The translations under genes and the position numbers were made by a program. The notes beneath the pieces are model-generated. The model saw only the letters and a program-made list of their open reading frames with translations, did no database searches and was not told the DNA's origin. This document shows positions 273 to 58,516 of a DNA stretch of 58,516 nucleotides, piece by piece (within the stretch, counting starts at the first letter, position 1; each line of letters opens with the position of its first letter). Source of the stretch: an uncultured Bacteroidota bacterium (lineage in GTDB: Bacteria > Bacteroidota > Bacteroidia > AKYH767-A > JABDAW01); assembly GCA_903911135.1 (NCBI GenBank), contig CAIWCG010000194.1, positions 1 through 58,516 of the forward strand. Reading direction: 5' to 3'.

Positions 273-403
273 TTCGAAGCTACCTGCCATCAAAGCATAG
301 CCCCGATAGTAGCGGCAGCCCGCTGCTTTGTGTCGGTAATGGGGATGCAGCGGCTACAGCGGATAGCGGGACGCAGATGGGACGAGAAGGAACCATAGGC
401 TCC
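273..403 (+). repeat. Conserved GC-rich ~130-nt intergenic element, copy E1 (possible structured RNA or MITE-like repeat)
   Basis: About 85-95% identical by eye to 31881-32011, 35652-35782 and the reverse complement of 35207-35338. Core is TTCGAAGCTACCTGCC..GATAGTAGCGGCAGCCCGCTGC..GCAGCGGCTACAGCGGATAGCGGGACG..ATAGGCTCC. An AT-rich AATTATAAAT tail follows. Confidence 0.85.
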
Positions 404-3359: not shown

Positions 3360-3830
3360 TTAAAATGTTCCATTCTCCAGCTCCTTGACCAAATCTTGAT
3401 AGGTGGGCACCTCTTCCAAAAAATCATACGTCATTTTTACCTTGTCCATGGTGCAGCAAAAATGATTGATGCCATTGGTGATGATCAGATATTTTACATC
3501 GAGCGAAAGATTGTATCTAGCTATCTGATCGAAGGAATTTTGGTTGATTTTTATGTTTGAGGCCTTGCATTCCACCATTAAAAGTGGCTTCCGTTCGGTG
3601 CCATAAATCACTACATCGCATCGTTTCTTGAGTTTATTCACCACGATGGTTTTCTCTACGGCCATCAACGAGGCGGGATAATGTTTTTCTTCCACCAGAT
3701 ATTTTATGAAGTTTTGGCGGACCCATTCTTCGGGCGTAAGCACCACATATTTTTTGCGGATGGGGTCAAAAACCTCGATAACGGCACCTACCACCCGTGT
3801 TTTAAGATTATTAATGGGAAGATTCACCAT
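3360..3830 (-). CDS. Type I restriction enzyme HsdR N-terminal domain-containing protein (stand-alone)
   Basis: 156 aa. Motifs EEWVRQNFIKYL, PLLMVECKA and IARYNLSLDVKYLIITNG are typical of the HSDR_N_2 family. Confidence 0.8.
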   Translation of the reverse strand: MVNLPINNLKTRVVGAVIEVFDPIRKKYVVLTPEEWVRQNFIKYLVEEKHYPASLMAVEKTIVVNKLKKRCDVVIYGTERKPLLMVECKASNIKINQNSFDQIARYNLSLDVKYLIITNGINHFCCTMDKVKMTYDFLEEVPTYQDLVKELENGTF

Positions 3831-35206: not shown

Positions 35207-35338
35207 GGAGCCTATATCCTCCACACGTATCAAGGTGCGTCCCGCTATCCGCTGTAGCCGCTGCCTGCCCATTTCCGACACAAAGCAGCGGGCTGCCGCT
35301 ACTATCGGGGCTATGCTCTGACGGCAGGTAGCTTCGAA
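35207..35338 (-). repeat. Conserved ~130-nt element, copy E4 (inverted orientation)
   Basis: Its reverse complement matches the E1-E3 core. The segment between GGGACG and ATAGGCTCC is replaced. The tail is AATTAGGAATTAGAAATTA. Confidence 0.85.
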
Positions 35339-35651: not shown

Positions 35652-35782
35652 TTCGAAGCTACCTGCCGTCAAAGCATAGCCCCGATAGTAGCGGCAGCCC
35701 GCTGCTTTGTTTCGGAAATGAGGAGGCAGCGGCTACAGCGGATAGCGGGACGAAGATGGGACGAGAGGAGGATATAGGCTCC
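35652..35782 (+). repeat. Conserved ~130-nt element, copy E3
   Basis: Same core as E1, with the same AATTATAAAT-type tail. Confidence 0.85.
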
Positions 35783-40457: not shown

Positions 40458-40797
40458 TTATAAATTATTAGCTATTTTCTAGGCTGCAAAACTACACTAT
40501 TGAGTTATAACGCCCTGTTAAGTAATCATTAATTTCCCCATTCTCCAACAAAACCCTTTTCATTGCTAATGAAATAAAAATTAATACGACCCGCAACCGA
40601 AGCATACCTGACTGGATGCTTGGTCACTTCCTCCCACCTTCAAGAAAACCTGTGGCTCACTTCGGTTTTGTTGGAATCATTTTGAATTGGTGGCATTGAA
40701 AATCTTTTATGGTTATTCTTTATTAATCATTTTAAGAGCCAATTTACCATAAAGTGCAGCTATTCAAAACCAATCAAGATGCATCGTTGCCTATTTT

Positions 40798-41669: not shown

Positions 41670-42524
41670 TTAAAAATTCTGCAAACCCCAAAAGTTAAAG
41701 CCATGAACAACTACGGAAGGAAGGATGCTTTTAGTTCTATGGGTGAGATATCCCCACATCAATCCTATCGGAATTATTCTTGTTGAGCTTAATAATGCCT
41801 CCTTAAGGTCATGCTCTTCGCCATACCACTTGGGTGCGTGCATAAATGCCCAGATGGTGGAGGTTATCAGCCATCCATAGCCCATGTTTTTCATCAAAGC
41901 ACCCATTCTCGTCTGCCCTATTACCCTAAAGAACTCCTCTGACAGGCCTGCCAATATCAACCCTGAATAAATGGCACCGATAACGCTTCCACTCTCGTCA
42001 ATTACCCTGTTCCAGGTAAGACTTTCTGGCGAAACGATACGGTTCGTAAGGAAGGATATCAACAATATGGGGATGACCATCACCAGCCCTTGCAGCCTTA
42101 CTCCCAATTCTTTGGGTTTGTATCCTGACAGCAGCATAATGATTGCCAATGCGATAGGAAACACAAAGATTATAAGCGGAATGATGGCCAATCTTGCCAA
42201 GGGATTCAGATGTTGCCAATCTACATTACCGGAAAATCGGAAGTAGAAAAACACCATTCCCAAGAGCAGGCAAAATATAAAATATCCTGTTTCCCGCTTT
42301 GCATTTCGCACCTCGATATCATTCTTTGGTGGATACCTTAAGGCATAAACATCGATGAAAAAGGAGAACAGCCACATCACAGACAAATAGGCAATGCCCC
42401 GTGTCAGGGTATCATGCCGATAGCCAACATAAAGTACCATTACTGCCAACAAAACCAGCAACGAAAAGGTCAAGGGATTACCCTTTATCCTTTCCATCTG
42501 AAACTTTATTCCTGATTTTATCAT
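41670..42524 (-). CDS. CPBP (CAAX/Abi) family intramembrane glutamic endopeptidase
   Basis: 284 aa, polytopic. Motifs SEEFFRV, FMHAP and VVHGFNF. Confidence 0.8.
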   Translation of the reverse strand: MIKSGIKFQMERIKGNPLTFSLLVLLAVMVLYVGYRHDTLTRGIAYLSVMWLFSFFIDVYALRYPPKNDIEVRNAKRETGYFIFCLLLGMVFFYFRFSGNVDWQHLNPLARLAIIPLIIFVFPIALAIIMLLSGYKPKELGVRLQGLVMVIPILLISFLTNRIVSPESLTWNRVIDESGSVIGAIYSGLILAGLSEEFFRVIGQTRMGALMKNMGYGWLITSTIWAFMHAPKWYGEEHDLKEALLSSTRIIPIGLMWGYLTHRTKSILPSVVVHGFNFWGLQNF

Positions 42525-42618
42525 CGATGATCTGTATTGAATAAACCTACTTGTCTGTCTTTGCTATCTAGCCGCCAAAACTAAACAATTCCAAACAAAA
42601 AGCCCAATAAAACAATAA

Positions 42619-42644
42619 GTCTCCCCAACATCTGTCGGAGAGAC
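42619..42644 (-). terminator. Rho-independent terminator (minus strand), probably the ancestral terminator of the 113-aa gene
   Basis: Minus-strand hairpin GTCTCTCC-(10 nt)-GGGGAGAC followed by TTATTGTTTTATT. Confidence 0.65.
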
Positions 42645-42670
42645 TTTCATGAATCTTTACCTCTTCCCTC

Positions 42671-42815
42671 CTACGGCACCGGACTATCTATATAAGTCAT
42701 GAATCCTTCACCACAAGTTTTCAAGGGGTCGGCGATGACGAACTTGGTGGAGGGGAGGATGTGCAAGGTCTCCTTGCTTTCGGAGTGTTCTTTGCAGAGG
42801 GGGAGGATGTATATG
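42671..42815 (-). pseudogene. Start-less 3' fragment, a displaced copy of the C-terminal ~48 codons of the 48109..48450 gene
   Basis: 42642-42815 aligns with 48081-48258 at roughly 90% identity by eye, including identical runs of 34 and 48 bp. There is no upstream coding continuation. Confidence 0.8.
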
Positions 42816-42854
42816 GTCAGGTCTTTGGGTCTGGATATTTTATCTAAACAATAT

Positions 42855-42975
42855 TTGAGGATACCATTAAACCCTACTTCTCTTATGCCAGAAAACCTGT
42901 GGCAATCTGGATTTCTAATTGGATAATAGTTGATTGGAGGATATGAAAATCCTTAATAGTTTATCCACAGGATGT
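42855..42975 (-). repeat. Cassette-junction repeat R1 (hairpin part conserved, promoter part degenerate)
   Basis: ..CATTAAACCCTACTTCTCTTATGCCAGAAAACCTGTGGCAATCTGG..AATTGGATAATAGTTGATTGGAGGA.. aligns with R2-R4. Confidence 0.75.
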
Positions 42976-42995
42976 AACTTTGGATTGAAAGCAGG

Positions 42996-44414
42996 TTATT
43001 CTTCCTTTTTCTTTTCGATAAAAACCCTGAAATGATAGTTAGCATCAATTTTCTTTTGGTACTCCTCCAAAATCATTTCATAAGTCAAACCGAAATCAAA
43101 TTCAGCAATGACACCTTCAATATATGGTTGTGGATCAAATCCGGTATTATGACAATAAATAAGCAATCCTTCGCAGGCAAAGAAGATTCGATTGGCAATT
43201 TCCTCCAAGATTTCACCTTCCAGCATCAATTTCCTTCTTTTAGGATTGTTTTCATCCACTTCTCCTGTTATTTTCCCTTCGGCAAGAAGATCTCCCATGA
43301 TAAAATAATTCCTGGCATCGCGATCATGGATAAAGAAGAGAAGAAAAGGCAACACAGACATTTTATGAAACCATTTCATGAATGTTTCACTGCTTTTCCA
43401 GTCATCCTCTTGCAGTATCAAGGTACTGCCTGCTATCTCCTCAAAAATGAACTCAAAGGCAAAAAGGCTTTTTTCTATCAGTAGTGGAAAATGCTGTAGG
43501 GCAAGGACTATTTCTTGAAATGAACTTTGCTCTTCCGCTTCTACGGCTGCAACAAGAACATGGATATTGGGAGTATGAGTCATCAAATTGCAATATTTTT
43601 TAAGAAAATCCATGTTCTTATAGATAACCTTATCACCAGGCAGCAGAAAATATTTCGGTCTTCCGGGTGCATCCAATATATCCTTAAAACTATCAGAAAG
43701 AGATGTATCCAAAAGATATTCTCCTAACAGTATGGTGTCTGTCATGGTCGATAATTCCTTCCAAAGTGCATACGATTCCCCCACAATTCCCATCAGGTCA
43801 TTATATCTATCCATGATATCGTTGCAGGTTTGGGTATGGTCGTCGCCATCAATATTATCCCTACTGTGATGTCTGCTGTATAAGTGATAATCTTTCTTGA
43901 AAGATTCCTTGTCAAGCGATAAATCTTCCATCTTGTCAATCATTATATCCCTGTTTTTGTAAAAACTCATGTAATCATCGTGGAACGCATCATAACCCAT
44001 CACATATTCTTCCCTTACAGTTCCATAATGTGCCATTTCATTGCCAAGCTTATCGATATGATTCTCATGAAAAGGGGTTATTTTCTCAAAAAGCTTATCT
44101 CTGTCAGCAATCAATTTATTGGTTGCCATCTTAGAAGTTGTGCGTTCGGCAACCAATTGTTTTGCTCTTGAATGATACGCTTCAATTGCTTCAGCAATAG
44201 GCTCAAATGCAGATTTTGCCAGTGAAACATGTTGGTCCAGTTCATTGAATATGTTCAATAGATTTTCCCGTTCAGGATAAAACCTGATTATATAATCATG
44301 AAGTTTGATATATTCTTTCAATAGGTCGATTTCAAATTCCTGTTCCAGCTTTTCATCGTCATACCTCAACACTATCGGTTTCAAAGGATGAGGAATTATT
44401 TTCTCTATCAGCAT
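42996..44414 (-). CDS. Hypothetical protein, orphan cassette gene
   Basis: 472 aa from the ATG at 44414; the track ORF uses an upstream TTG inside repeat R2. I recognised no motif. Acidic and helical. Confidence 0.65.
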   Translation of the reverse strand: MLIEKIIPHPLKPIVLRYDDEKLEQEFEIDLLKEYIKLHDYIIRFYPERENLLNIFNELDQHVSLAKSAFEPIAEAIEAYHSRAKQLVAERTTSKMATNKLIADRDKLFEKITPFHENHIDKLGNEMAHYGTVREEYVMGYDAFHDDYMSFYKNRDIMIDKMEDLSLDKESFKKDYHLYSRHHSRDNIDGDDHTQTCNDIMDRYNDLMGIVGESYALWKELSTMTDTILLGEYLLDTSLSDSFKDILDAPGRPKYFLLPGDKVIYKNMDFLKKYCNLMTHTPNIHVLVAAVEAEEQSSFQEIVLALQHFPLLIEKSLFAFEFIFEEIAGSTLILQEDDWKSSETFMKWFHKMSVLPFLLFFIHDRDARNYFIMGDLLAEGKITGEVDENNPKRRKLMLEGEILEEIANRIFFACEGLLIYCHNTGFDPQPYIEGVIAEFDFGLTYEMILEEYQKKIDANYHFRVFIEKKKEE

Positions 44415-44427
44415 GTCTTTATTTTTT

Positions 44428-44500
44428 TGCAAAGATACACATTAAACCCCACTTCTCTAATGCCGGAAAACCGGTGACAAGATGGGGTGTTAATGGAATT
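44428..44500 (-). repeat. Cassette-junction repeat R2
   Basis: TGCAAAGATACACATTAAACCCCACTTCTCTAATGCCGGAAAACCGGTGACAAGATGGGGTGTTAATGG. It overlaps the HEPN stop codon. On the minus strand it supplies TATCTTTG 15 nt before the next ATG. Confidence 0.85.
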
Positions 44501-44897
44501 CAGATGTAATGTTCATTTTCTTATGAACAAAATCTCTTATGTTTTTTGCAATTAGTATGGCATTGTTCGTTTCTGCCTCCGTTAATTCAATGGTAGTTTC
44601 AGGGTATCTGATTTCAACTGCATAATCTGCGAGTTCCATAATGCTGACAATCATGATTTCGTCTATTGATTCTTTGGCATTTATAAGTTCCAGCAGATAA
44701 ACCAAATCATGAGTTCTTCTAAACTCCACTTTCAAATAGATAAGATAGGCCTTTAAGTATTTTTCGACTGCCTGCTGGCAGTGAAATGCCGTTACATGAC
44801 GGTATTCTGGGATATGCATTTGTATAACCAATGCAGTACCCAAATCTTCATCTCCTTTCTCCACCCATTTCCTTATGATATCCATTTTATCGTTCAT
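44490..44897 (-). CDS. HEPN domain toxin (HepT-like)
   Basis: 135 aa. R-x4-H motif in EFRRTHDLVYL. Overlaps the upstream MNT gene by 11 nt. Confidence 0.8.
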   Translation of the reverse strand: MNDKMDIIRKWVEKGDEDLGTALVIQMHIPEYRHVTAFHCQQAVEKYLKAYLIYLKVEFRRTHDLVYLLELINAKESIDEIMIVSIMELADYAVEIRYPETTIELTEAETNNAILIAKNIRDFVHKKMNITSEFH

Positions 44898-45201
44898 ATA
44901 AAGTAGTACAGTTTTTCATTGCAGACGATAAGAATGAATAAGGATTCAGCAAGTCATCATTAAATTCTGATGGGGTATAAACCTTTAAGTCCATTGGTAC
45001 AAAAGAACCGAATAAATATTTTCTTACCTCCCGACCGCGACTTTGTTTTGGAAGGTCGGTATCCTTAATCACAATCAAATCCAAATCACTGTCCTCATTA
45101 GGAGTTCCATTGGCATAAGAACCAAATAAAATCACCTTTTCAGGCGCATAATTCTGAACTATCTTATTGACAATTTCAGTGATTTTTTCCTTTTTAATCA
45201 T
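44887..45201 (-). CDS. Minimal nucleotidyltransferase antitoxin (MntA-like)
   Basis: 104 aa. Motif LFGSYANGTPNEDSDLDLIV (GS..DxD). Confidence 0.8.
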   Translation of the reverse strand: MIKKEKITEIVNKIVQNYAPEKVILFGSYANGTPNEDSDLDLIVIKDTDLPKQSRGREVRKYLFGSFVPMDLKVYTPSEFNDDLLNPYSFLSSAMKNCTTLYER

Positions 45202-45225
45202 AACTGATTTTTTTATTTATCTGAA

Positions 45226-45345
45226 TGCAAAGATACACATTAAACCCTACTTCTCTAATGCCGGAAAACCGGTGACAAGATGGGGGGTTAATTGGATTAT
45301 TGGTGATTGGAGGAAATATAAGTCCTTAGTTTATCAACCTATAAG
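45226..45345 (-). repeat. Cassette-junction repeat R3
   Basis: Same sequence as R2, plus the extension AATTGGATTATTGGTGATTGGAGGAAATATAAGTCCTTAGTTTATCAAC shared with R1. Confidence 0.85.
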
Positions 45346-45371
45346 CCCTGAAATCCAATAAGACTAAACAG

Positions 45372-45752
45372 TTATTTTATTGTATAGCTTGGTTTGTTTG
45401 GATGCATCGGATTTGGCATCAGCTTTTGGGTGGCAGGATGAACGACTAAATCCATATCTTCCATAGGCACAGCCCCAAGCAATGTTTCATCACCAATAAC
45501 TAGAGCCCCAACAAAACAAAATCGGTTCTCAAAGTCAACCCGTATAGGGCCTACATAAGGAACCTGATGCGAACTGCCATCAGCTATGGTAACAGGGCGT
45601 TTATCCAATTCCTCCAGCTCCAATTGATAGGCCACAGATTGTGGAATGCACAACATTAATGCGCCGGTATCTACCAATGCATCTATTTCAACGGGCAATA
45701 GTGAGGCATTGCGCGGATTACTAAGTTTTATCTTTGAATAGGTTAAGCCCAT
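45372..45752 (-). CDS. Retropepsin-like (clan AA) aspartic protease, stand-alone
   Basis: 126 aa. Catalytic ALVDTGA, and the later ILGAVPMEDMDLVV-type segment typical of bacterial single-domain retropepsins. Confidence 0.7.
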   Translation of the reverse strand: MGLTYSKIKLSNPRNASLLPVEIDALVDTGALMLCIPQSVAYQLELEELDKRPVTIADGSSHQVPYVGPIRVDFENRFCFVGALVIGDETLLGAVPMEDMDLVVHPATQKLMPNPMHPNKPSYTIK

Positions 45753-45792
45753 TGTATTATTTGTTAAGAAACTTCTCTAGAATTTTTAAGAA

Positions 45793-45880
45793 TGCAAAGA
45801 TACACATTAATCCCTACTTCTCTAATGCCAGAAAACCGATGGCAAGCTGGGGTGTTGATTGGATTATTGGGGATTGTAAG
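45793..45880 (-). repeat. Cassette-junction repeat R4
   Basis: TGCAAAGATACACATTAATCCCTACTTCTCTAATGCCAGAAAACCGATGGCAAGCTGGGGTGTTGATTGGATTATTGG. It overlaps the last codons of the HNH-like gene. Confidence 0.85.
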
Positions 45881-46543
45881 AATTAGATTTTCTTTTACAC
45901 ATTTCAAAAGCTGTGAAGAACTGATTAACTGCAAATTCTTCATAAGGTTTATCTGTCAATTTAGTTTGCTCTATAATCGGTTGTATTATACCCTTTCTAT
46001 TTGCAATGATTGTTGGGTGATTAATTCCTAAAGTTTCAAGCATTTTAGTAACTCTTTCTTTATCATTTGGCGACAAATCGGGATTTGGGATAAAAATATG
46101 TTCCTTTTCATAATAGAAGAGTAATCTAAACTCATCATATTCAGGCTCATCAGGTTTAAGTATGTAATCAACCTCTTTTCTCCCCTTAACTTTAGCAGAA
46201 TTAACATCGGAATGAATCATAAATAAATTAGACCATAACCAAGCTTTACTTGCTTTTAAGTTAGGATCAAAATGATCTAATTCACCAAATGATTTATCTT
46301 CTCCTTCAAAACAATAACATCCATCTTTCCAATTTAATGTTTCATAAAATATCTCATCACATAATAAAGATTCTGTGTAAGCACAAACACCTTTTTGGCA
46401 ATAGAATAGACTCATCACAACATCTTTGTAAAACTTGTTGTTGATGAATTATATACTCCATGATTTCTATCATCATTTTCAAGTACTTCTTCCCAAGATT
46501 TGTATTGAGTAGATTGAACAACAGACTTATCAATTTTCCTCAT
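45864..46543 (-). pseudogene. ptuB: PtuB-like HNH (TIGR02646-type) nuclease gene, apparently split by a frameshift near 46415-46425
   Basis: The 184-aa ORF (45864..46418) has CAYTE, ELDHFDP, WSNLF and a LETLGINHPTIIANRKG-type tail. A 42-aa ORF (46415..46543) starts 3 nt after the ATPase stop and reads like the missing N-terminus, but in another frame. Confidence 0.55.
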
Positions 46544-46546
46544 TTA

Positions 46547-47911
46547 TTACCAAACATCATAATTAATTTTACCAGTATCCCATCCTATTTTTTCAGCGAG
46601 TTTTTTATAATCATTCCATGTTTTGTCAATCAAGTCTTTATCAGCTTTTTCAATTTTCAGTTTCTTTAATTTCTCTTCTAACTGAGCCAATTCAACTAGT
46701 TTAGGAGTTCTTTCCTTGCTATTGCCATCAGGTAGAAAATCATAAACCTTCTGATAAATTGTATCCCATCGCATATATCTTGGGTCAATAAAATAATTAT
46801 CAACATGATTCTCGCCCCTGTAATATTTATCTCTTAAAATATATCCATCTTGATTGAACTTCAATTCTGCAATTTCCCAAGGTTCAAAACATGATAGTAT
46901 AAAAGCAGAATGTGTTGCGAAAAAGAATTGTGAATTCTTAGCCAATGAAGTATATATTTCAATAATCTCCGCTTGAATATCAGGATAAAGAGAGCGTTCT
47001 GGTTCATCAAAGAAAATACCACAATTATTAGGTTTAAGATAATATAATGGGATTGCAGAAATTATTATTTGTTTTGTTCCTGTACTTAATGAATCAAAAG
47101 GTATTATTTCATTCGTATGTACATTCTGAATCTGTAAATTCAAATCATTAACATCCTCCAATTCTGTTTTAGTTTTTAAATGGAATTTATTCAGAATTGG
47201 ATCAAGACAATTCTGTGCTAAATCACTAACTGGGTTTGGATTTTCTTTTAACCAATTCTGATATTCATTTTTTAACTCATCAGAGTTTTCCTTCATTATT
47301 TTTTTAGAAATCTCAATTCTGAAGTTTGTTTCTTTTATCCTATATTGTTGAACTTGAATAAGTGCGATGTCCAAGGCTCTTCTAGCATCTTGAATATTAA
47401 AAAAGTAAAAAATAGATTCCATAAATATTCCCCCACTGGGTATATCATTTTGTTTTTCAGCAGGGTAACTCAAAACACTTATATCGAGTTTTGTCCGAAT
47501 TCCTCGAAAATGTTCTAAAGCTTGCTTCACTGTCATTTGTATAGAATCAACAATGATGTTATCAATAATTGCTACTTGGTTATTTTCAATTACAAAATCA
47601 TAAGATATTCGATAATTATCAGTAAATGAAAGGCGTATATATGCTCCTTTGGGTAATTGTATATTAAAACTTTCTAAATATAAAGTAGGATTAAATTTAT
47701 CAGTATGGGCAATAAAATTGTAATCAAATTTACAATGAAATCCTAATTGTATCAACTTCAGCAATGTAGTTTTACCAGTCCCGCTTTGTCCAATAAAACA
47801 AACTTTATCCAATGGCTGTCCTTCCTTTGGATGTCCCTGTGGATAGGTTAAGTCAAGAGTAAAATCCTTGAATTGATAAAAATTCTTGAGTTCTATTTTC
47901 TTCAGTTTCAT
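46547..47911 (-). CDS. ptuA: PtuA-like ABC/AAA_15-type ATPase (Septu-like)
   Basis: 454 aa. Walker A GQSGTGKTT, signature-like LSTGTKQ, Walker B IFFDEPERSL, H-loop FFATHS. Confidence 0.6.
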   Translation of the reverse strand: MKLKKIELKNFYQFKDFTLDLTYPQGHPKEGQPLDKVCFIGQSGTGKTTLLKLIQLGFHCKFDYNFIAHTDKFNPTLYLESFNIQLPKGAYIRLSFTDNYRISYDFVIENNQVAIIDNIIVDSIQMTVKQALEHFRGIRTKLDISVLSYPAEKQNDIPSGGIFMESIFYFFNIQDARRALDIALIQVQQYRIKETNFRIEISKKIMKENSDELKNEYQNWLKENPNPVSDLAQNCLDPILNKFHLKTKTELEDVNDLNLQIQNVHTNEIIPFDSLSTGTKQIIISAIPLYYLKPNNCGIFFDEPERSLYPDIQAEIIEIYTSLAKNSQFFFATHSAFILSCFEPWEIAELKFNQDGYILRDKYYRGENHVDNYFIDPRYMRWDTIYQKVYDFLPDGNSKERTPKLVELAQLEEKLKKLKIEKADKDLIDKTWNDYKKLAEKIGWDTGKINYDVW

Positions 47912-48108
47912 TTTAACGTATTTACTATTATAAGATTCGCAAAACTAACAAAATTTATCCATAAAATTTATAGCATTTTTTATCTTTGAAGATACTGGTG
48001 CAATTTATAAGGCATGCTTTTGACTCTAAAATCTGAAAACATTTTTAAACCAATAATCAATATTATATCAATTTCAAATGACTTTCTTAAATCTTTACTC
48101 ATTCCTCC

Positions 48109-48450
48109 CTACAGCACCGGACTATCCACATAAGTCATGAATCCTTCGCCACAAGTTTTCTTGATGTCGGCGATGACGAACTTGGTGGAGGGGAGGATGT
48201 TCAAGGTCTCCTTGCTTTCGGAGTGTTCTTTGCAGAGGGGGAGGATGTAGATGGTGGAATCTATGGGTTTGGTTTGCAAATCCAAACCATCCAGTTTATG
48301 AACATGCGTCCCTACGATGTCCACCTTGCCACATCCTGCCACCACGCAGCCTGTTATCTGGCGGAAGCTGAAGTTCTTGTAATGCTGAAACCAGTTGCCG
48401 CATCTACAATTCTTTTCTGTCGGCTTACTGCTGATTTTTACTTCTATCAT
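48109..48450 (-). CDS. Small Cys/His-rich protein, possibly a zinc-binding HNH-like fold
   Basis: 113 aa. Has CRCGNW..H, GCVVAGCG, VGTHVH and ILPLCKEHSE. Its 3' third is duplicated at 42671-42815. Confidence 0.6.
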   Translation of the reverse strand: MIEVKISSKPTEKNCRCGNWFQHYKNFSFRQITGCVVAGCGKVDIVGTHVHKLDGLDLQTKPIDSTIYILPLCKEHSESKETLNILPSTKFVIADIKKTCGEGFMTYVDSPVL

Positions 48451-48522
48451 TGTGTTTATTTTTATTATTGTTTCTCATTTTGTTAATCCCTTTTTATGCT
48501 TGATTATGCCTTTTTGACAAAG

Positions 48523-48761
48523 TTTGAAGGAATCTTTACATTCCTTCAAACAATGTCAACATTGTTTGAAGAAGTCCTTACATTCCTTCAAGGTATGTGA
48601 ACATTGTTTGAAGAAGTCCTTGCATTCCTTCAAGGTATGTAAACATTGTTTGAAGAAGTCCTTGCATTCCTTCAAGGTATGTAAACATTGTTTGAAGAAG
48701 TCTTGACATTCCTTCAAACAATGTCAACATAGTTTGAAGATATCCTTACATCCCTTCAAAG
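48523..48761. repeat. 42-bp tandem array (array 8), about 5.7 units
   Basis: Units start at 48523, 48565, 48607, 48649, 48691 and 48733. TTGAAG..CTTCAA and AAACA-T-TGTTT inverted repeats. The terminal units differ from the three inner units. Confidence 0.9.
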
Positions 48762-48781
48762 TTTCGTCTTTTAGCTAATTT

Positions 48782-49699
48782 TTACCTGTTTACAGTGATT
48801 TGAATAATCAAATCGAAGCCTTGAGGTCCATCTTTGGTTATAATTTGATGCATGAACCACACCTCTATTCCTCCGGCTAAACCTGTAACTTGGGTACTGG
48901 CCTTGGTAGTTGGCAACATTCTATCGAAGGAAACTCCATCAAAAGAGATATGCCAATCATGACAGCCATTAGATGTGCCTGAACCAGCAGCAGTAAGATG
49001 GATGGTTCCTTGCACCACCGAATTGAAGGCACTCCAAGGTTGCTTTCCTCTTGGAGTAATGGTTTTAACTGTGAACCCTCCTGATTTTATCCCCACTTCC
49101 GCCGTTCCAGGGTTAGAATTTCCATAAGTTTGATAAAGAAACATGATCGCCTGCATGGCATTGTTCAGCAGCGTGAAGGTGGATTCTTCGTTGCCCGACC
49201 CAGAATTACCGTAGTTGGTGGCCAATGTTCGTCCGGCAGTTACGGTAGCCGGAGGTACGGTAACATAAGTGGTGGTAGCCATCAAGGTAAACATGTCCAT
49301 GGCCTGTTTTGTCTTGTCGGCCTTGCTGCCTTTCCAGTTTATGGTGGCGATATACTTCTTCTGCATCACGGGCAAGGACATCAAGACGATTTGCCCGTTG
49401 TATTGGTGGGCATCCACCCCATTTGCATTCAACCTTTTCAAGTCAAATGCGCTGATGTCATAAATCACCACCGACTCATCCATGGTTTCGTAAAGATTGT
49501 TTTTGAACATCTCAAAACGAGCCAAGATAAAGTTCACCAACCATAATACAGGAATCAAGAATCGTGATGGTGATTTCACAATTTCTTCCTCATCCATGCC
49601 AAATTCCCTGATTTGGTCATTCTTCAATGCTCTTTCCGAACATTCCCTGTGCTTCCTGGCGGTGTAGGATTCTTCAGGTCTTTTTACTTTGATTTTCAT
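48782..49699 (-). CDS. Hypothetical protein with an FN3-like C-terminus (P305)
   Basis: 305 aa. C-terminus GIEVWFMHQIITKDGPQGFDLIIQITV. Leader AATTAAAAAATTAAAAACATG resembles that of P217. Confidence 0.6.
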   Translation of the reverse strand: MKIKVKRPEESYTARKHRECSERALKNDQIREFGMDEEEIVKSPSRFLIPVLWLVNFILARFEMFKNNLYETMDESVVIYDISAFDLKRLNANGVDAHQYNGQIVLMSLPVMQKKYIATINWKGSKADKTKQAMDMFTLMATTTYVTVPPATVTAGRTLATNYGNSGSGNEESTFTLLNNAMQAIMFLYQTYGNSNPGTAEVGIKSGGFTVKTITPRGKQPWSAFNSVVQGTIHLTAAGSGTSNGCHDWHISFDGVSFDRMLPTTKASTQVTGLAGGIEVWFMHQIITKDGPQGFDLIIQITVNR

Positions 49700-49913: not shown

Positions 49914-50564
49914 CTATTGCTTTATTTGGAGGAGGTAATATTTCTTAATAATCCATTCTTTAATAATTCTATCATAAAATTTTGAATAGAACATAAATGA
50001 AAAATCATCCTTCCAAAGTATTTGATCATAAGCTTCATTATTTAGTTTTATTTTTATAACATTTCCTGTATTTATGTTTTTGAAGAATACTAATTCAAAG
50101 TAGGAAGTAATATATTCGGCAGAAAAATAAGCATAAAATAATTTTGAAGGAGAGAATATAAAAGAATCGAAAAGAGAGGTGTCGATTATTCCATTTTTTT
50201 GATTTACTAATAAATGTCTAATGTTAACAAGTTTTTGAATGACTAAGAAATATTTTATATCCTTATCATAACCTAAATACATGTATTGTTGGTAATCAAT
50301 ATCAGGATTATCTAAATTATTGGTGAACACCACTTCCTTCCCATTATCCAGCGGCAGTTTCAGCACACCATTTACTTTTTTAATCTTAGTAGTATCAATA
50401 ATAAAATCATCCTTTGGTGGCAAGCCATGCGAATAATAATAAGCACTGTCCACTTCCTTTAAAATATAGTCTTTGGTTTCTTCAATGACCTTAAAGTCTT
50501 GGGCATTGGCATTAATAGCCAAGAAGAACAGGCAGACATTAAGAAAGCATTGAGGCAATTTCAT
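49914..50564 (-). CDS. Secreted hypothetical protein (very AT-rich gene)
   Basis: Start taken at MKLPQCF..AINANAQ (signal peptide). N/K/I/Y-rich. Confidence 0.6.
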   Translation of the reverse strand: MKLPQCFLNVCLFFLAINANAQDFKVIEETKDYILKEVDSAYYYSHGLPPKDDFIIDTTKIKKVNGVLKLPLDNGKEVVFTNNLDNPDIDYQQYMYLGYDKDIKYFLVIQKLVNIRHLLVNQKNGIIDTSLFDSFIFSPSKLFYAYFSAEYITSYFELVFFKNINTGNVIKIKLNNEAYDQILWKDDFSFMFYSKFYDRIIKEWIIKKYYLLQIKQ

Positions 50565-51041
50565 ACGGCAAAGATAGATAATGACCAATTATTTAACAGG
50601 TATTCAGTATTTATGAGGAAGGAAATCAGTAATGGATAGATAAATGTACCCATTTGTGGCATATTCAAGATATTCTTTGTTTGTGATAGACATTTAAAGC
50701 TTAATGTCATCATGGATAATGATTTCCGATTTGGAATCTCAAACAGCAAATTATTTAACCTAATAAAGGATTTATCGCTCCTTAATTTCATCGAGTCACC
50801 GATGGCAAAAATCCATTATTAGCAAAGCTTTCAATGTTGCTTCTTAGTTCAGGGAATGTTAAATGTTTGCATAATCCCAATAAAAATGAAGAAAACATGA
50901 AAAACATGACGTGGGTCATAGGAGTGCAGTAGTCATCCCATTAATATTGCAACCTTAATACCAAGAACCAAAACAACATATCAACTTAAAGGGGAAGCTG
51001 AAAACCGCATAGAGTAAGCAACAATTAAACAACATAAAAAC

Positions 51042-57000: not shown

Positions 57001-58516
57001 ATAGTGGTGGTCAAGGTGCAGCATCGGGTTATGGTACAGGGCAATCCGGTAGTTTAGGTCAAGGAGGATCAGCTTATCTTAATGCAAGTTGCTCAAATGG
57101 AATTGGCGGCGGCGGCGGCGGATATTATGGAGGAGGAGGATCAGCAGGAGGAAATTGTGGAGCAGGTCAAGGTGGTGGTGGTTCTTCTTGGACAGGTACT
57201 TTAATAAATCCGTCATTTAATGCAGGTATTCGATCTGGGGTAGGCTTAGCTATAATTTCTTGGGATGCCGTTAATTTCCCCATTGTAACATTGACATCCG
57301 GTTTGGATTCGGGGGCAATATTTCCTATCGGTACTACAACAAATATTTACACTGCTGTTGATGGTTCTGGAAATTCTTCCTCTTGTACATTTGACATTAC
57401 TGTTAGCAACAGTGCTTATGCAGTAATTACACCTGATGGTCCAACAACAATTTGTAACGGAAGTACAGTATCACTGGATGCAGGTAATTTTGCTTCTTAT
57501 TTATGGAATACGGGTGAAACTAATGAAATAATTATTGCTAGTACTACTGGTACTTATGCAGTAACTATTACAGATTATAATGGATGTACAGGAAGCGCAT
57601 CTCAAGATGTTCTCATTCATAATTCAGTTTCTCCTATTATTCATTCAAATTATAATTCAACCCATTGTGAAAGCACTTCATATCAACTTTATGCTCAAGA
57701 TCAAAATAATCAATGGTATCCTACATGCTTATGGAGTAATGGTGAAACAGGACATTATATTACGGCAAATACGAATGGTAACTATTGTGTAACAGTAACA
57801 GACCTGAATGGCTGCTCTAATACTTCATGTGTTGTGGTTTCTGTTATTCCTGTCGCAGTGATTACTCCAAGTCATCCGTTATGCGATGGCAATCCAGTTT
57901 CGTTTGATGCAGGAAATGGATATTCCGTATATTTTTGGAGCACAGGAGAAACAACAGAAGCCATTATTCCGAACCAAACCGAATGGTATTATGTAACAGT
58001 AACAAATGCACAAGGATGCACGGCATCGACCTCAATATATAATAATACGGTTTTTGATAGTACCGCCATCATTCAAGCGAGTGCATATCCTTGGGGAGGT
58101 CCGTATTATGATGTTTCACCAATATGCACCCGCACATCATATTATTTATATACAGAAAATCAAACAAATCAGTATTCATCCTATCTCTGGAGTACAGGTG
58201 AAACAGGATGGTATATTAGTGTTTCAACAAGTGGAATCTATAATGTAACAGTTACCGATGCCTTGGGATGCACAGGCGTTGCCAGTATAAATGTATCTGT
58301 AATACCCACGCCTACTATTGCTCCAAGTCATCCTTTATGTGATGGCAATCGAGTATCCTTTGACGCAGGTTTATATACATCATATATCTGGAATACCGGA
58401 GAAACAACAGAAGCCATTATTCCGAACCAAACCGAATGGTATTATGTAACAGTAACAAATGCACAAGGATGCACGGCATCGACCTCAATATATAATAATA
58501 CGGTTTTTGATAGTAC
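51042..58516 (+). CDS. Giant secreted surface protein (partial, runs off the window): IPT/TIG domain, then repeated HYR plus ALK-like glycine-rich modules, then Ig-like repeats
   Basis: I hand-translated the frame from the ATG at 51042 (in-frame TAA at 51015) and checked codon by codon over about 51042-53250 and 53802-54700; no stop. Signal peptide ..LLLFSANQSAAW. HYR pattern PP.I..CP.D....C...V.Y..PTA.D.C...GS.F..G.T....A.D..GN...C.F.V.V.D. Gly-rich blocks at about 52161-52845, 53801-54555, 55271-56010 and 56501-57270. Not in the ORF track because it has no stop in the window. Confidence 0.85.
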   Translation, partial: METTIYSTSNKGVTRSLMITMTFVLLLFSANQSAAWTQTYQISSSNQLLYCYSNCGPDSYYGASEGGDIGFTWNDNLGFGVNISSITIRFRVGMECNWGDKSTTMNGNYAGMFSTTDNCDCSLSIDPIFTLNPNPGDYVIGGANTFLVTNLQNNFGFFMDNDTLGGYAMITVEYTQSPFISSYSTNSACIGNNIIIHGTGLANVNSVMFFDNVAATILSTDATSVIVEVPSGATSGPITVSNPDGNYVGGDFYINGTAPIITCPNGQVLYSGQNDCQVEATFDGMTSDGVVTYIYNSNYISSPYFFPIGQNMVEMNVMTGNCNIACFFNISVLDTVLPILTPCPSDVVQACAGIISYETPTATDNCSISMAASVTYAYTGTQQSWTVPQGLTNIQVDLSGAQGGGTQFGSDGGAGGRVTATLPVNGGQILYIYVGGAPTDNSGGYNGGGGCYGNGYSGSGGGASDIRFDSPDLGNRRIVAGGGGGSGANCNSSDEWGGAGGDLIGQTGYQCGGNCCYTGTGGTQYSGGYDQYGYGASGAFGNGGNGIWDGGGGGGGFYGGGGGSYGGGGGGSSYTDPSAMNVVHTQDYQVGNGYVIINYNQAYPTVTQTSGLPSGSFFQANVTTNTFVASDQSGNTVACSFNVTIDDITPPVIAGCPDDIYLACPGVVDYFPPTASDDCDSVLVYQAGGLAPGSNFVNGATINTFIAMDATGNTSQCSFTVTVSDYTPPVIFDCPGDVVSSCPTTVDFNPPTASDDCNDVNIQQTIGYGSGYYYTSGVSVNTFVAIDGSGNTAECTFTVTISDVDAPEFTSCPTDITMACPDVVSYDIPTATDACIYLTIVQTSGLVSGSFFPNGITTNTFQATDGSGNTSVCTFNVSIDDSTPPEIAGCPADTVMSCPGIINFNMPTVSDNCTSSANGSITFSYTGIIENWMVPNGVPTVTITALGAQGGQSSGGSGGLGASMTGMVSVTSGESLKILVGHQGYYGTQGGGGGGSFVTDNSNNPLVIAGGGGGGYNGGSSSYSANANGSIYTQGNSGVYGSGNTYGGAGGTNGGGGNCSPQFGSSEGSGGGGLIGNGSNCYGTTGGYSFVNGGAGGSGNGSGGGGGFGGGGGGDWYYWTGGGGGGGYSGGGGGTYYGVGGGGGSFNAGTNQTNNAGVNPGNGLVIISWNNTYPMISQTSGSPSGTFIVANTTNTFTAIDGSGNTSICSFNITVNDNTPPVFANCPADIILSCPGNVDYITPTATDDCAIVNVEQTAGLPTGSYFANGVMINTFLATDAAGNTSVCTFSVTVSDYTPPVISNCPTDYVLSCPGVVEYTTPTASDDCIIVNIEQTVGLPTGSFFPNGVTINTFVATDGSDNTSECSFSVSINDNVPPVIANCPIDSVMSCPGIVNFNIPTVSDNCSSNINGSITFNYSGSIVSWIVPTGVTSVSVLALGGQGGSASGGVGGYGASIIGTFNVTPSDNIQILVGQQGGNNVVNQYYRGGGGGGGSFVYNSSSSTLMLAAGGGGGAGQYGYGSSVNSDASITTNGKSGYNGGFGGSSGNGGGASSYGSGGAGWNSNGNNSGYSTGGSRFHGGGSGGNGYSDGANGGFGGGGGSYAGAGGGGGYSGGGGGGWSYSGYGGGGGSYNGGTNPINTVGVNSGNGLVVISWSNVFPNITQTSGLASGSYFANGITTNTFIAEDGSGNTASCSFIITVNDVTPPELFNCPSDISVSCPGIIIFGSPIANDDCGVATVEQIIGLVSGTIFPSGTTEVMFRATDGSNNTSTCSFNVIVDVDNTPPTIVGCPSDLTVNCSNIVSFVPPTVTDNCNNISLSGGSQTFNYTGTIQHFTVPAGVTSVNLDAFGAQGVAVGMYSGNGGEAKGTMAVIPGQVLNVFVGGQNLFNGGGTGYHGANGGDATDIRYPSTSMNDRVIVAGGGGGAGGDNWICQSGVDGSGGGGIAVGQNFVGGSGGRGYAFCGTSGGTNGGTSGNSYHGGGAGGGGLNSGGQGAASGYGTGQSGSLGQGGSAYLNASCSNGIGGGGGGYYGGGGSAGGNCGAGQGGGGSSWTGTLINPSFNAGIRSGVGLAIISWDAVNFPIVTLTSGLDSGAIFPIGTTTNIYTAVDGSGNSSSCTFDITVSNSAYAVITPDGPTTICNGSTVSLDAGNFASYLWNTGETNEIIIASTTGTYAVTITDYNGCTGSASQDVLIHNSVSPIIHSNYNSTHCESTSYQLYAQDQNNQWYPTCLWSNGETGHYITANTNGNYCVTVTDLNGCSNTSCVVVSVIPVAVITPSHPLCDGNPVSFDAGNGYSVYFWSTGETTEAIIPNQTEWYYVTVTNAQGCTASTSIYNNTVFDSTAIIQASAYPWGGPYYDVSPICTRTSYYLYTENQTNQYSSYLWSTGETGWYISVSTSGIYNVTVTDALGCTGVASINVSVIPTPTIAPSHPLCDGNRVSFDAGLYTSYIWNTGETTEAIIPNQTEWYYVTVTNAQGCTASTSIYNNTVFDS
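57945..58516 (+). repeat. Intragenic direct repeat: 119 bp identical at 57945-58063 and 58398-58516 (453-bp spacing)
   Basis: GGAGAAACAACAGAAGCCATTATTCCGAACC...TTTTTGATAGTAC is identical in both places. The flanks are only loosely similar. Confidence 0.9.

Follow-up and report, generated by a model that had tools for sequence, protein, structure and literature searches.

Locus and cargo

How defence and toxin-antitoxin (TA) genes build up at fixed chromosomal sites without a visible mobility gene is the question addressed here, on a 58,516-nucleotide (nt) contig of an uncultured Bacteroidota bacterium (CAIWCG010000194.1, assembly GCA_903911135.1; the whole stretch is referred to below as the window). 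On the minus strand of this contig, an intact gene for a Cys/His-rich protein of 113 amino acids (aa) is followed by an island of predicted defence and TA genes, then by a start-less remnant of a 113-aa-type gene with its terminator, and finally by a CPBP/Rce1-like backbone gene (41670-42524). The order within the island is PtuA/PtuB, D2d, a retropepsin-like gene, D2c, MNT-HEPN, D2b, a 472-aa gene and D2a, where D2 denotes a repeat of ~110 nt that recurs at the cassette junctions (Table 1). We show herein that the island is modular, that a cassette has been swapped between closely related strains, and that D2 belongs to a wider family.

Approximately 5.2 kb lies between the flanking repeats (42853-48079). 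Its GC content is 33.8% against 41.2% for the window, in keeping with the AT-richer interior noticed in the original prediction, and the individual cassettes range from 30% (PtuAB) through 35% (MNT-HEPN) and 36.9% (472-aa gene) to 43% (aspartic protease gene), a spread that implies separate origins. The earlier reading of the interior as defence or TA-type cassettes was borne out by PADLOC for Septu and by Pfam for MNT-HEPN. The PtuA and PtuB genes are adjacent, on the same strand and 128 nt apart, and the pair is a predicted Septu defence system. The MNT gene lies directly upstream of the HEPN gene and overlaps it by 11 nt (44887-44897), the arrangement of a type II/VII TA pair.

Table 1. Features of the island and its borders (positions in the window)
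Feature	Position	Strand	Evidence and remarks
Partial D2 relic	40643..40704	-	box 1 and half of box 2, no promoter box; nhmmer E = 8e-5
Native intrinsic terminator of the 113-aa gene family	42617..42646	-	13 pairs; kept behind the left remnant only
Left repeat copy	42642..42852	-	start-less in-frame 60-codon remnant, diverged allele (ADPLK...YIDSPVP); stop 42671-42673
D2a	42846..42955	-	decayed promoter box TATCCTCA; abuts the 5' break of the left remnant
472/473-aa protein without family	42996..44417	-	three long helices and a C-terminal alpha/beta domain, invariant CHNTGFDP
D2b	44414..44516	-	before the 472-aa gene; only copy with a significant hairpin fold (z = -3.3)
HEPN (toxin-type) partner of MNT	44490..44897	-	Pfam HEPN 2e-20
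MNT nucleotidyltransferase (antitoxin-type)	44887..45201	-	Pfam NTP_transf_2 1.3e-10; stop overlaps HEPN start
D2c	45209..45329	-	ends in TATCTTTG, 31 nt before the MNT ATG
126-aa retropepsin-like (clan AA aspartic protease), single-gene cassette	45372..45752	-	Pfam Asp_protease_2 1.2e-5
D2d	45778..45889	-	after Septu, before the protease gene; window/L002 homology breakpoint inside
PtuB (Septu HNH-type partner)	45864..46418	-	PADLOC PtuB 9.7e-14
PtuA (Septu ATPase), strain-variable first slot	46547..47911	-	PADLOC PDLC00274 2.4e-66; Pfam AAA_15/AAA_21
TAgtTTTG (-7-type) box of Septu itself	47940..47947	-	29 nt upstream of the PtuA ATG, by reading of the sequence
Right repeat copy	48080..48290	-	last 49-60 codons of the intact 113-aa gene and 29-nt 3' untranslated region; without native terminator
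Intact 113-aa Cys/His-rich gene	48109..48450	-	open reading frame; motif CxCGSWLxHW...GAHV...PLCxxH...TCG
305-aa partner gene	48782..49699	-	with tandem array and 113-aa gene forms a conserved module in varied contexts

A duplicated gene end flanks the island

The island is bounded by direct repeats. A base-by-base comparison of 42642-42817 with 48080-48255 (ungapped, offset 5438) gave 159 identities in 176 nt (90.3%), with exact runs of 35 nt (42728-42762) and 48 nt (42764-42811), which agrees with the identity of about 90% and the long exact runs first judged by eye. By repeat search and blastn, the match could be prolonged to 42642-42852 and 48080-48290 (211 nt at 85%; 193 nt at 88%), and a third copy was absent from the window. 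The right copy is, as had been proposed, the 3' end of the intact gene. The left copy, described in the original prediction as start-less and placed before a minus-strand terminator and the CPBP gene, proved to be an in-frame remnant whose translation, without a start codon, runs to LDKISRPKDLTIYILPLCKEHSESKETLHILPSTKFVIADPLKTCGEGFMTYIDSPVP and a stop, followed by the hairpin at 42646-42617.

This hairpin identifies the older arrangement. In three relatives (L001, L003 and L005), a hairpin of the form AAAGTCTCTCC...GGAGACTTTTT stands ~25 nt after the 113-aa-type gene. In the window, it is present after the left remnant only, and the homology of the right copy ends at 48080, inside the terminator stem. 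Because the hairpin is found only behind the remnant and the right-hand homology stops within its stem, the DNA between the copies is an insertion relative to an ancestral arrangement of gene followed by terminator. The remnant carries the ADPLK...YID allele, as does the homologue P0003, and the intact gene carries the ADIKK...YVD allele, as do L001 and L002. Moreover, the remnant is continuous with a backbone 98.7% identical to that of the sister strain L002, and the intact 113-aa gene and the 305-aa gene beside it are 90% and 85% identical, respectively, to their L002 counterparts.

The two copies are not uniformly diverged. Relative to the left remnant, the intact copy differs at 16 of 41 positions in the 5' extension, 1 of 84 in the central block (48166-48249), 8 of 57 in the 3' coding part and 7 of 29 in the untranslated region (UTR). 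Relative to L001, in which the gene is uninterrupted, the corresponding differences are 2/41, 7/84, 1/57 and 5/29, with 4/160 in the 5' unique part, to which a comparison with the remnant does not apply. The central block of the intact copy is therefore of the left type and looks like a conversion or crossover tract; being nearer to the left copy than to the orthologue, it would be the mark of homologous exchange between the copies. L001 itself joins a right-type coding end to a left-type UTR (2/29 differences from the left remnant) and a left-type terminator. Since this uninterrupted gene is mosaic as well, exchanges appear to have occurred at several positions within a segment of ~200 nt.

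The D2 repeat stands after every cassette

A second repeat family, D2, with four copies of ~110 nt inside the island, had been overlooked in the first reading of the sequence. A 33-nt core pattern (GGTTTTCYGGCATTAGAGAAGTRGGGTTTAATG), with one mismatch allowed, matches at four places; each of these lies inside the island and on the minus strand, and no match is expected by chance. The full copies and a relic in the backbone were placed by profile search with nhmmer. There is one copy per gap after a cassette, always on the gene strand, and the same profile search finds none upstream of Septu. The body of D2 comprises box 1 (CCAATAATYCAATTAA) and box 2 (TGCCR-N9-YGGCA), and its end, TATCTTTGCA, is a TAnnTTTG box. 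D2b, D2c and D2d terminate in TGTGTATCTTTGCA, which contains TAnnTTTG, at a distance of 27-50 nt from the start codon that follows. TAnnTTTG is the -7 promoter consensus of Bacteroidetes, and the end of D2 appears placed to drive the next cassette, a promoter activity that we infer from this consensus. Next downstream of D2a is only the dead gene remnant.

The relic lies in a backbone gap between DUF3667 and SDR genes, 2 kb outside the island, and is present in L002 too. It may be the remnant of an older array or of a solo insertion.

Comparison with a sister strain places a breakpoint inside D2. L002/L018 is a contig of a Bacteroidota metagenome-assembled genome from another sample. Its identity to the window is 98.7% across the 9 kb that extend leftward of position 45871, a segment that includes D2c, D2b, D2a, the left remnant and the backbone. 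In the slot occupied by Septu in the window, L002 has two small, unrelated genes that are read from the other strand and possess a terminator of their own. Its junction at the UTR of the 113-aa gene lies ~16 nt earlier: clear homology ends ~13 nt after the stop codon versus 29 nt in the window. Within D2d, box 1, box 2 and the next 13 nt are ~80% identical between the two strains, and the sequences are identical from TTAATGTGTATCTTTGCA onward. Because the divergence stops before TTAATGTGTATCTTTGCA, the body of D2 goes with the upstream cassette and its promoter end with the downstream one.

The arrangement of the window itself is reproduced in a second assembly, and short contigs end inside D2b and inside the flanking repeat, as is expected for repeats. 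In a search with the CPBP protein, only L002 exceeded 66% identity, and the next relative (66%) was without synteny. A genome scan with CPBP gave a single 60% relative, also without synteny, and two more distant CPBP loci have other neighbour genes; no empty site was found among these loci.

A wider D2 family

The strict 26-nt D2 pattern had no match in the genome or metagenome collections. A homologue of the 472-aa protein (45% identical) was present on a soil-metagenome contig, L021, where five D2 relatives alternate with genes: D2, 420-aa and 385-aa genes, two D2, a 471-aa gene, two D2 and an MNT gene. A relaxed pattern built after L021 had been found matched six further real contigs and, by chance, two GC-rich ones (L023 and L028); it matched none among viral contigs or plasmids. 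In the soil contigs, the D2 unit is 126 nt long and stands in direct tandem or separates cassettes. L029 carries a type II methylase and a BsuBI/PstI-type endonuclease, three D2, an antitoxin with MazF, and a partial D2; L027, two D2, DUF433 and DUF5615/PIN-like genes, and one D2; L024, two D2 followed by a 78-aa gene and a ParE-like gene.

Across the family, box 1 is conserved as CCAcAATAATTCAATTAAAA and box 2 as TGCCG-CAGGTTTTC-CGGCA (TGCCA...TGGCA in two copies of the window), and a fixed spacer of 22 nt leads from box 2 to the promoter box. Gene-proximal copies carry TATCTTTG, and internal copies of a tandem carry TATCTTTT, with TTTT instead of TAnnTTTG. Copies from one lineage are uniform and distinct from those of other lineages.

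A second pair of contigs differs at one cassette. L030 and L021 share the 3' end of the 471-aa gene at 97% identity, but have five and two D2 units, respectively, and different cassettes next to them. The MNT gene of L030 is 82.5% identical in nucleotides to that of the window, the MNT protein of L021 merely 28%. Since L030 has a window-type MNT gene beyond the 471-aa gene, the 478-family and MNT cassettes stand there in the opposite order to the window. The homology breakpoint between L021 and L030 lies 14 nt after GGCATT, and that between the window and L002 lies 13 nt after it. The alignments of the window and its relatives show mosaic exchange within the flanking repeat, those of both strain pairs breakpoints inside D2. 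Conclusions drawn from L030 alone need care, because it has adapter sequence at both ends: positions 1-170 and 1190-1351 are Illumina adapter (AGATCGGAAGAGCGTCGTGTAGGGAAAGAGTGT...), translated by gene callers as MKKNRPISIIAFSF...RRPPRSTLFPYTTLFRS.

D2 compared with known elements

The co-oriented cassettes, each with a repeat after it and with a content that varies between strains, are the arrangement of an integron or of a CALIN, a cluster of attC sites without an integrase. As an attC site, D2 was rejected. Scanning the island and five D2-bearing contigs gave no paired RYYYAAC...GTTRRRY cores; D2b is the only copy that folds better than shuffled controls, and its palindrome is, by reading of the sequences, not retained in the soil lineage. 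The stem of box 2 is 94.7% paired with one covarying pair only, and a covariation score as high as the observed one arises in 28 of 500 shuffles. Nor is D2 a known RNA: the Rfam models gave no match in the island and four D2-bearing contigs, neither at the gathering threshold nor with E <= 1. On reading, the copies show no terminal inverted repeats and no target-site duplication, and an inverted 10-mer resembling box 1 at the right junction is not above chance. No description of a similar junction repeat was found in the open-access literature.

Recombinase search

As first stated, the window has no recognizable recombinase. Pfam found no integrase, recombinase or transposase domain in the island genes and 30 further open reading frames (ORFs) of the window, 40 in total, of which 7 were without any match. 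No Y1 transposase was found in the window by Pfam, no IntI integrase with attI in the 58-kb window or in L029, and no recombinase in the 15 kb of L029. The matches obtained are to housekeeping functions (DnaB, Tgt, Ppk, LptF/G, RsmG, MgtE, KdtA and others).

The 472-aa gene, which is flanked by D2 in two lineages, was considered as a hidden recombinase and dismissed, since its predicted structure shows no recombinase-like fold: the AlphaFold2 (AF2) model (predicted local distance difference test, pLDDT, 86) gave only helical-bundle matches (E >= 0.077) when compared with the PDB by Foldseek. Its family has nine members of 27-44% identity. The motifs QH.P..IEK, D.DAR and CHNTGFDP.Y are invariant in the C-terminal domain and for that reason suggest that the family may be an enzyme.

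The 113-aa gene family and its module

The 113-aa protein has eight close homologues among 5.8 billion clusters, and the exact protein is absent from the records searched. It belongs to a broad unnamed family of proteins of ~95-105 aa (375 remote representatives at E < 1e-3) with the consensus CxCGSWLxHW...C...GC...GAHV...YIxPLCxxHN...TCG. The family has no match in Pfam, NCBIfam, PHROG or the PDB; profile searches gave weak TT_ORF2-like (CxCx5H) and Ref/DUF968 HNH-type hints, and the AF2 model (pLDDT 46) was too poor for a fold search.

In every recovered locus, the 113-aa-type gene is preceded by a 305/329-aa gene and a tandem array with a period of 42 nt. The genes outside this module vary by locus (Rrf2, GH16, a 117-aa gene or CPBP adjoin it), and its presence in several unrelated contexts indicates that the module moves. 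The array lies between the 305/329-aa and 106/113-aa genes (window, 48522-48762; L006, 307-572; L003, 5349-5499) and keeps its 42-nt period, and a 21-nt half-period with inverted repeats, in each lineage, with a sequence wholly different per lineage. This constant period with a lineage-specific sequence suggests a co-evolving DNA-binding partner or an iteron-like site. A "115-aa" ORF upstream of the 106-aa gene in L006-L010, which would have pointed to tandem paralogues, is the array spuriously translated. Viral relatives were looked for and not found, and the notion of a phage-borne module was dropped; the 306-aa gene beside CPBP in L013 is unrelated to the 305-aa gene of the window.

Other features of the window

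The retropepsin-like gene has a DNA-level relative on the Synechocystis plasmid pSYSA (L031, 83501-83881; 73% over 115 nt). There, a type III-B CRISPR operon contains it between cmr4 and cmr3, as a single gene on the opposite strand. A 224-aa gene without family occupies 49914-50588, to the right of the 305-aa gene; its GC content of 28.7% means that low-GC DNA is present on both sides of the 305/113 module. Farther right, one frame on the plus strand is open from 51018 to the end of the window at 58516; it has 2499 codons or more and weakly resembles a giant protein of the SprB/PKD type in L022. A type I restriction HSDR_N_2 domain (1.3e-40) makes up the whole of a stand-alone 156-aa protein encoded at 3360-3830, far from the island and beside a MORN-repeat protein. 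Three copies of the Flavo-1 RNA motif (RF01705, 52-55 bits), at 295-377 (+), 35234-35316 (-) and 35674-35756 (+), are unrelated to D2.

Discussion

The lack of an integrase at a defence island is by itself ordinary, as integrase-less hotspots are already documented. At two core defence hotspots of Pseudomonas aeruginosa, no mobile gene could be detected in 29% and 47% of the sites, and homologous recombination through the conserved flanks was proposed as the route of transfer for such hotspots (PMC10250203). The island described here resembles these hotspots (cDHS1/2) in its low-GC defence/TA cargo at a fixed site, its variation between strains and its want of an integrase. It differs in that one flank is duplicated, as 176-211 nt of a gene 3' end, and the cargo is split by a junction repeat. 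The junction repeat and the cassette-wise turnover are the more interesting feature of the locus.

In these respects, the nearest likeness is with sedentary chromosomal integrons and CALINs, such as those of Vibrio with their 123-126-bp VCR repeats. Common to both are co-oriented cassettes, a repeat of ~110-126 nt after each that is homogeneous within a lineage, a TA-rich cargo, an order and content that vary between strains, and the newest change at one end. Unlike attC, however, D2 has neither R''/R' cores nor a conserved bipartite palindrome, and there is no IntI. Integron cassettes mostly have no promoter, whereas D2 has a promoter box ahead of the cassette that follows it; D2 also stands in tandem as "empty" units. 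Furthermore, the host belongs to a phylum, the Bacteroidetes, in which integrons are very rare (PMC9024848).

We consider the island to be an array of separately acquired defence/TA cassettes that arose by homology-driven insertion followed by cassette-wise turnover, and give this reading a probability of about one half. Incoming DNA with a copy of the gene 3' end would have entered by homology-driven recombination, through a Campbell-type single crossover or a one-sided replacement, with no need for an element-encoded integrase. Entry would have displaced the resident 3' end and its terminator, with the gene left complete on the upstream side and, on the downstream side, a truncated copy still followed by the native terminator. 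This is what a Campbell-type crossover, as in the integration of a suicide plasmid, predicts, together with direct repeats as long as the homology used; for the present locus, the RecA-type mechanism is one we infer. The flanking repeats would also permit loop-out. Later turnover would proceed cassette by cassette through recombination at D2 and at the gene 3' UTR, with the gene-proximal slot as the site of the most recent change. Exchange positions that vary and junctions that are strain-specific fit such a homology-driven origin.

Several points weigh against it. The repeat has a near-identical block of 84 nt on its 5' side and then a 3' end that has diverged further, a pattern that an att core with an element-borne gene end would leave as well. 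The two independent strain-level breakpoints fall at almost the same position in D2; this hints at a defined crossover point and hence at a dedicated recombinase whose gene lies outside the 58-kb window. The promoter role of D2 is read from a single feature, the TAnnTTTG consensus, and the model leaves the source of the first circle or fragment carrying the gene 3' end unaccounted for. As to the material, L030, with its adapter-bearing ends, is possibly mis-assembled through its D2 repeats, and L002 is the sole close relative in the databases.

The original prediction saw a single integrative element that entered the 3' end of the 113-aa gene by site-specific recombination and brought a replacement end, its integrase acting in trans or lost. 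Its view of the DNA as an insertion into a gene-terminator unit held; a single element with one att site did not agree with the cassettes, the D2 repeats, the L002 junction and the mosaic flanks, and we regard it as unlikely. The geometry is that of islands and prophages that integrate at gene 3' ends: an intact gene, the island, and a displaced start-less 3' fragment with the original terminator; the target gene is also the source of the direct repeats that border the island on either side. Exact identity runs longest (35 and 48 nt) on the 5' side of the repeat, and a diverged 3' part follows, like an att core and a substitute end. Unlike such elements, the island has no recombinase, either within it or among the 40 ORFs of the window, and the 472-aa gene at its left end lacks a recombinase fold. 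It is also modular, with heterogeneous GC, and L002 differs both in the UTR junction and in the adjacent cargo. L001, moreover, joins an "element-type" coding end to a "chromosome-type" UTR and terminator, which argues for exchange at several positions. An accident to the module itself is still less probable. Two 305-aa/array/113-aa modules, once in tandem or accreted, would have lost most of the second copy by deletion, down to its last 60 codons. The module is evidently mobile, being found in several unrelated contexts, and the left remnant is a distinct natural allele; nonetheless, no homologous locus has a tandem module, and this reading needs a further deletion with its end exactly at a D2 copy.

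The nature of D2 itself can be read in two further ways. It may be the site of a dedicated cassette recombinase encoded elsewhere in the genome, the island being an integron-like platform of Bacteroidota in which each cassette has its own promoter; we hold this to be possible, although doubtful. The gene 3' end would then be an attI-like entry site and its duplication a by-product, a view that is compatible with a homology-driven origin of the flanking duplication. Like attC, D2 follows every cassette and its body goes with the upstream one; the gene-proximal slot differs between strains in which the distal cassettes are 98.7% identical; and the cargo of TA and defence genes, the permuted order of cassettes between lineages, the tandem "empty" units and the homogeneity of the repeats within but not between lineages all point the same way. 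The coincidence of the breakpoints, 13-14 nt after GGCATT in two lineages, is its best support. Yet searches of the window and of L029 gave no recombinase, the attC-type cores are missing, the larger palindrome occurs in one copy of the window and is not kept in the soil lineage, and the hairpin of box 2 is almost without covariation. In addition, the junctions of the window and L002 at the gene UTR differ, the duplication of 176-211 nt is unexplained by the model, and a conserved repeat of ~110 nt would focus ordinary homologous recombination too. That a site of ~110-126 nt unrelated to attC serves as crossover point and promoter donor in uncultured soil and freshwater Bacteroidota is a correspondingly tentative proposal.

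Alternatively, D2 could be only a regulatory or promoter module, or a mobile promoter like a miniature inverted-repeat transposable element (MITE), with no part in cassette movement. The TAnnTTTG box of gene-proximal copies, at its fixed distance from box 2 and 27-50 nt before the ATG, its replacement by TTTT in internal copies, and the solo partial copy in the backbone would suit such a role. It is rather improbable, given the strain-level breakpoints inside D2, the want of terminal inverted repeats or target duplications on reading the copies, and the tandem runs of identical 126-nt units, which are atypical of MITE insertion.

Whichever of these applies, the locus offers a testable anatomy, in which a duplicated gene end records one insertion and a junction repeat parts cassettes that would be independently promoted, with two strain pairs that each have exactly one cassette changed beside D2. 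Should D2 prove to be a recombination site, the problem solved by the integron would have a second answer of unrelated structure, in a phylum nearly without integrons. If it is a mere homology handle with a promoter, ordinary recombination can yield integron-like modularity.

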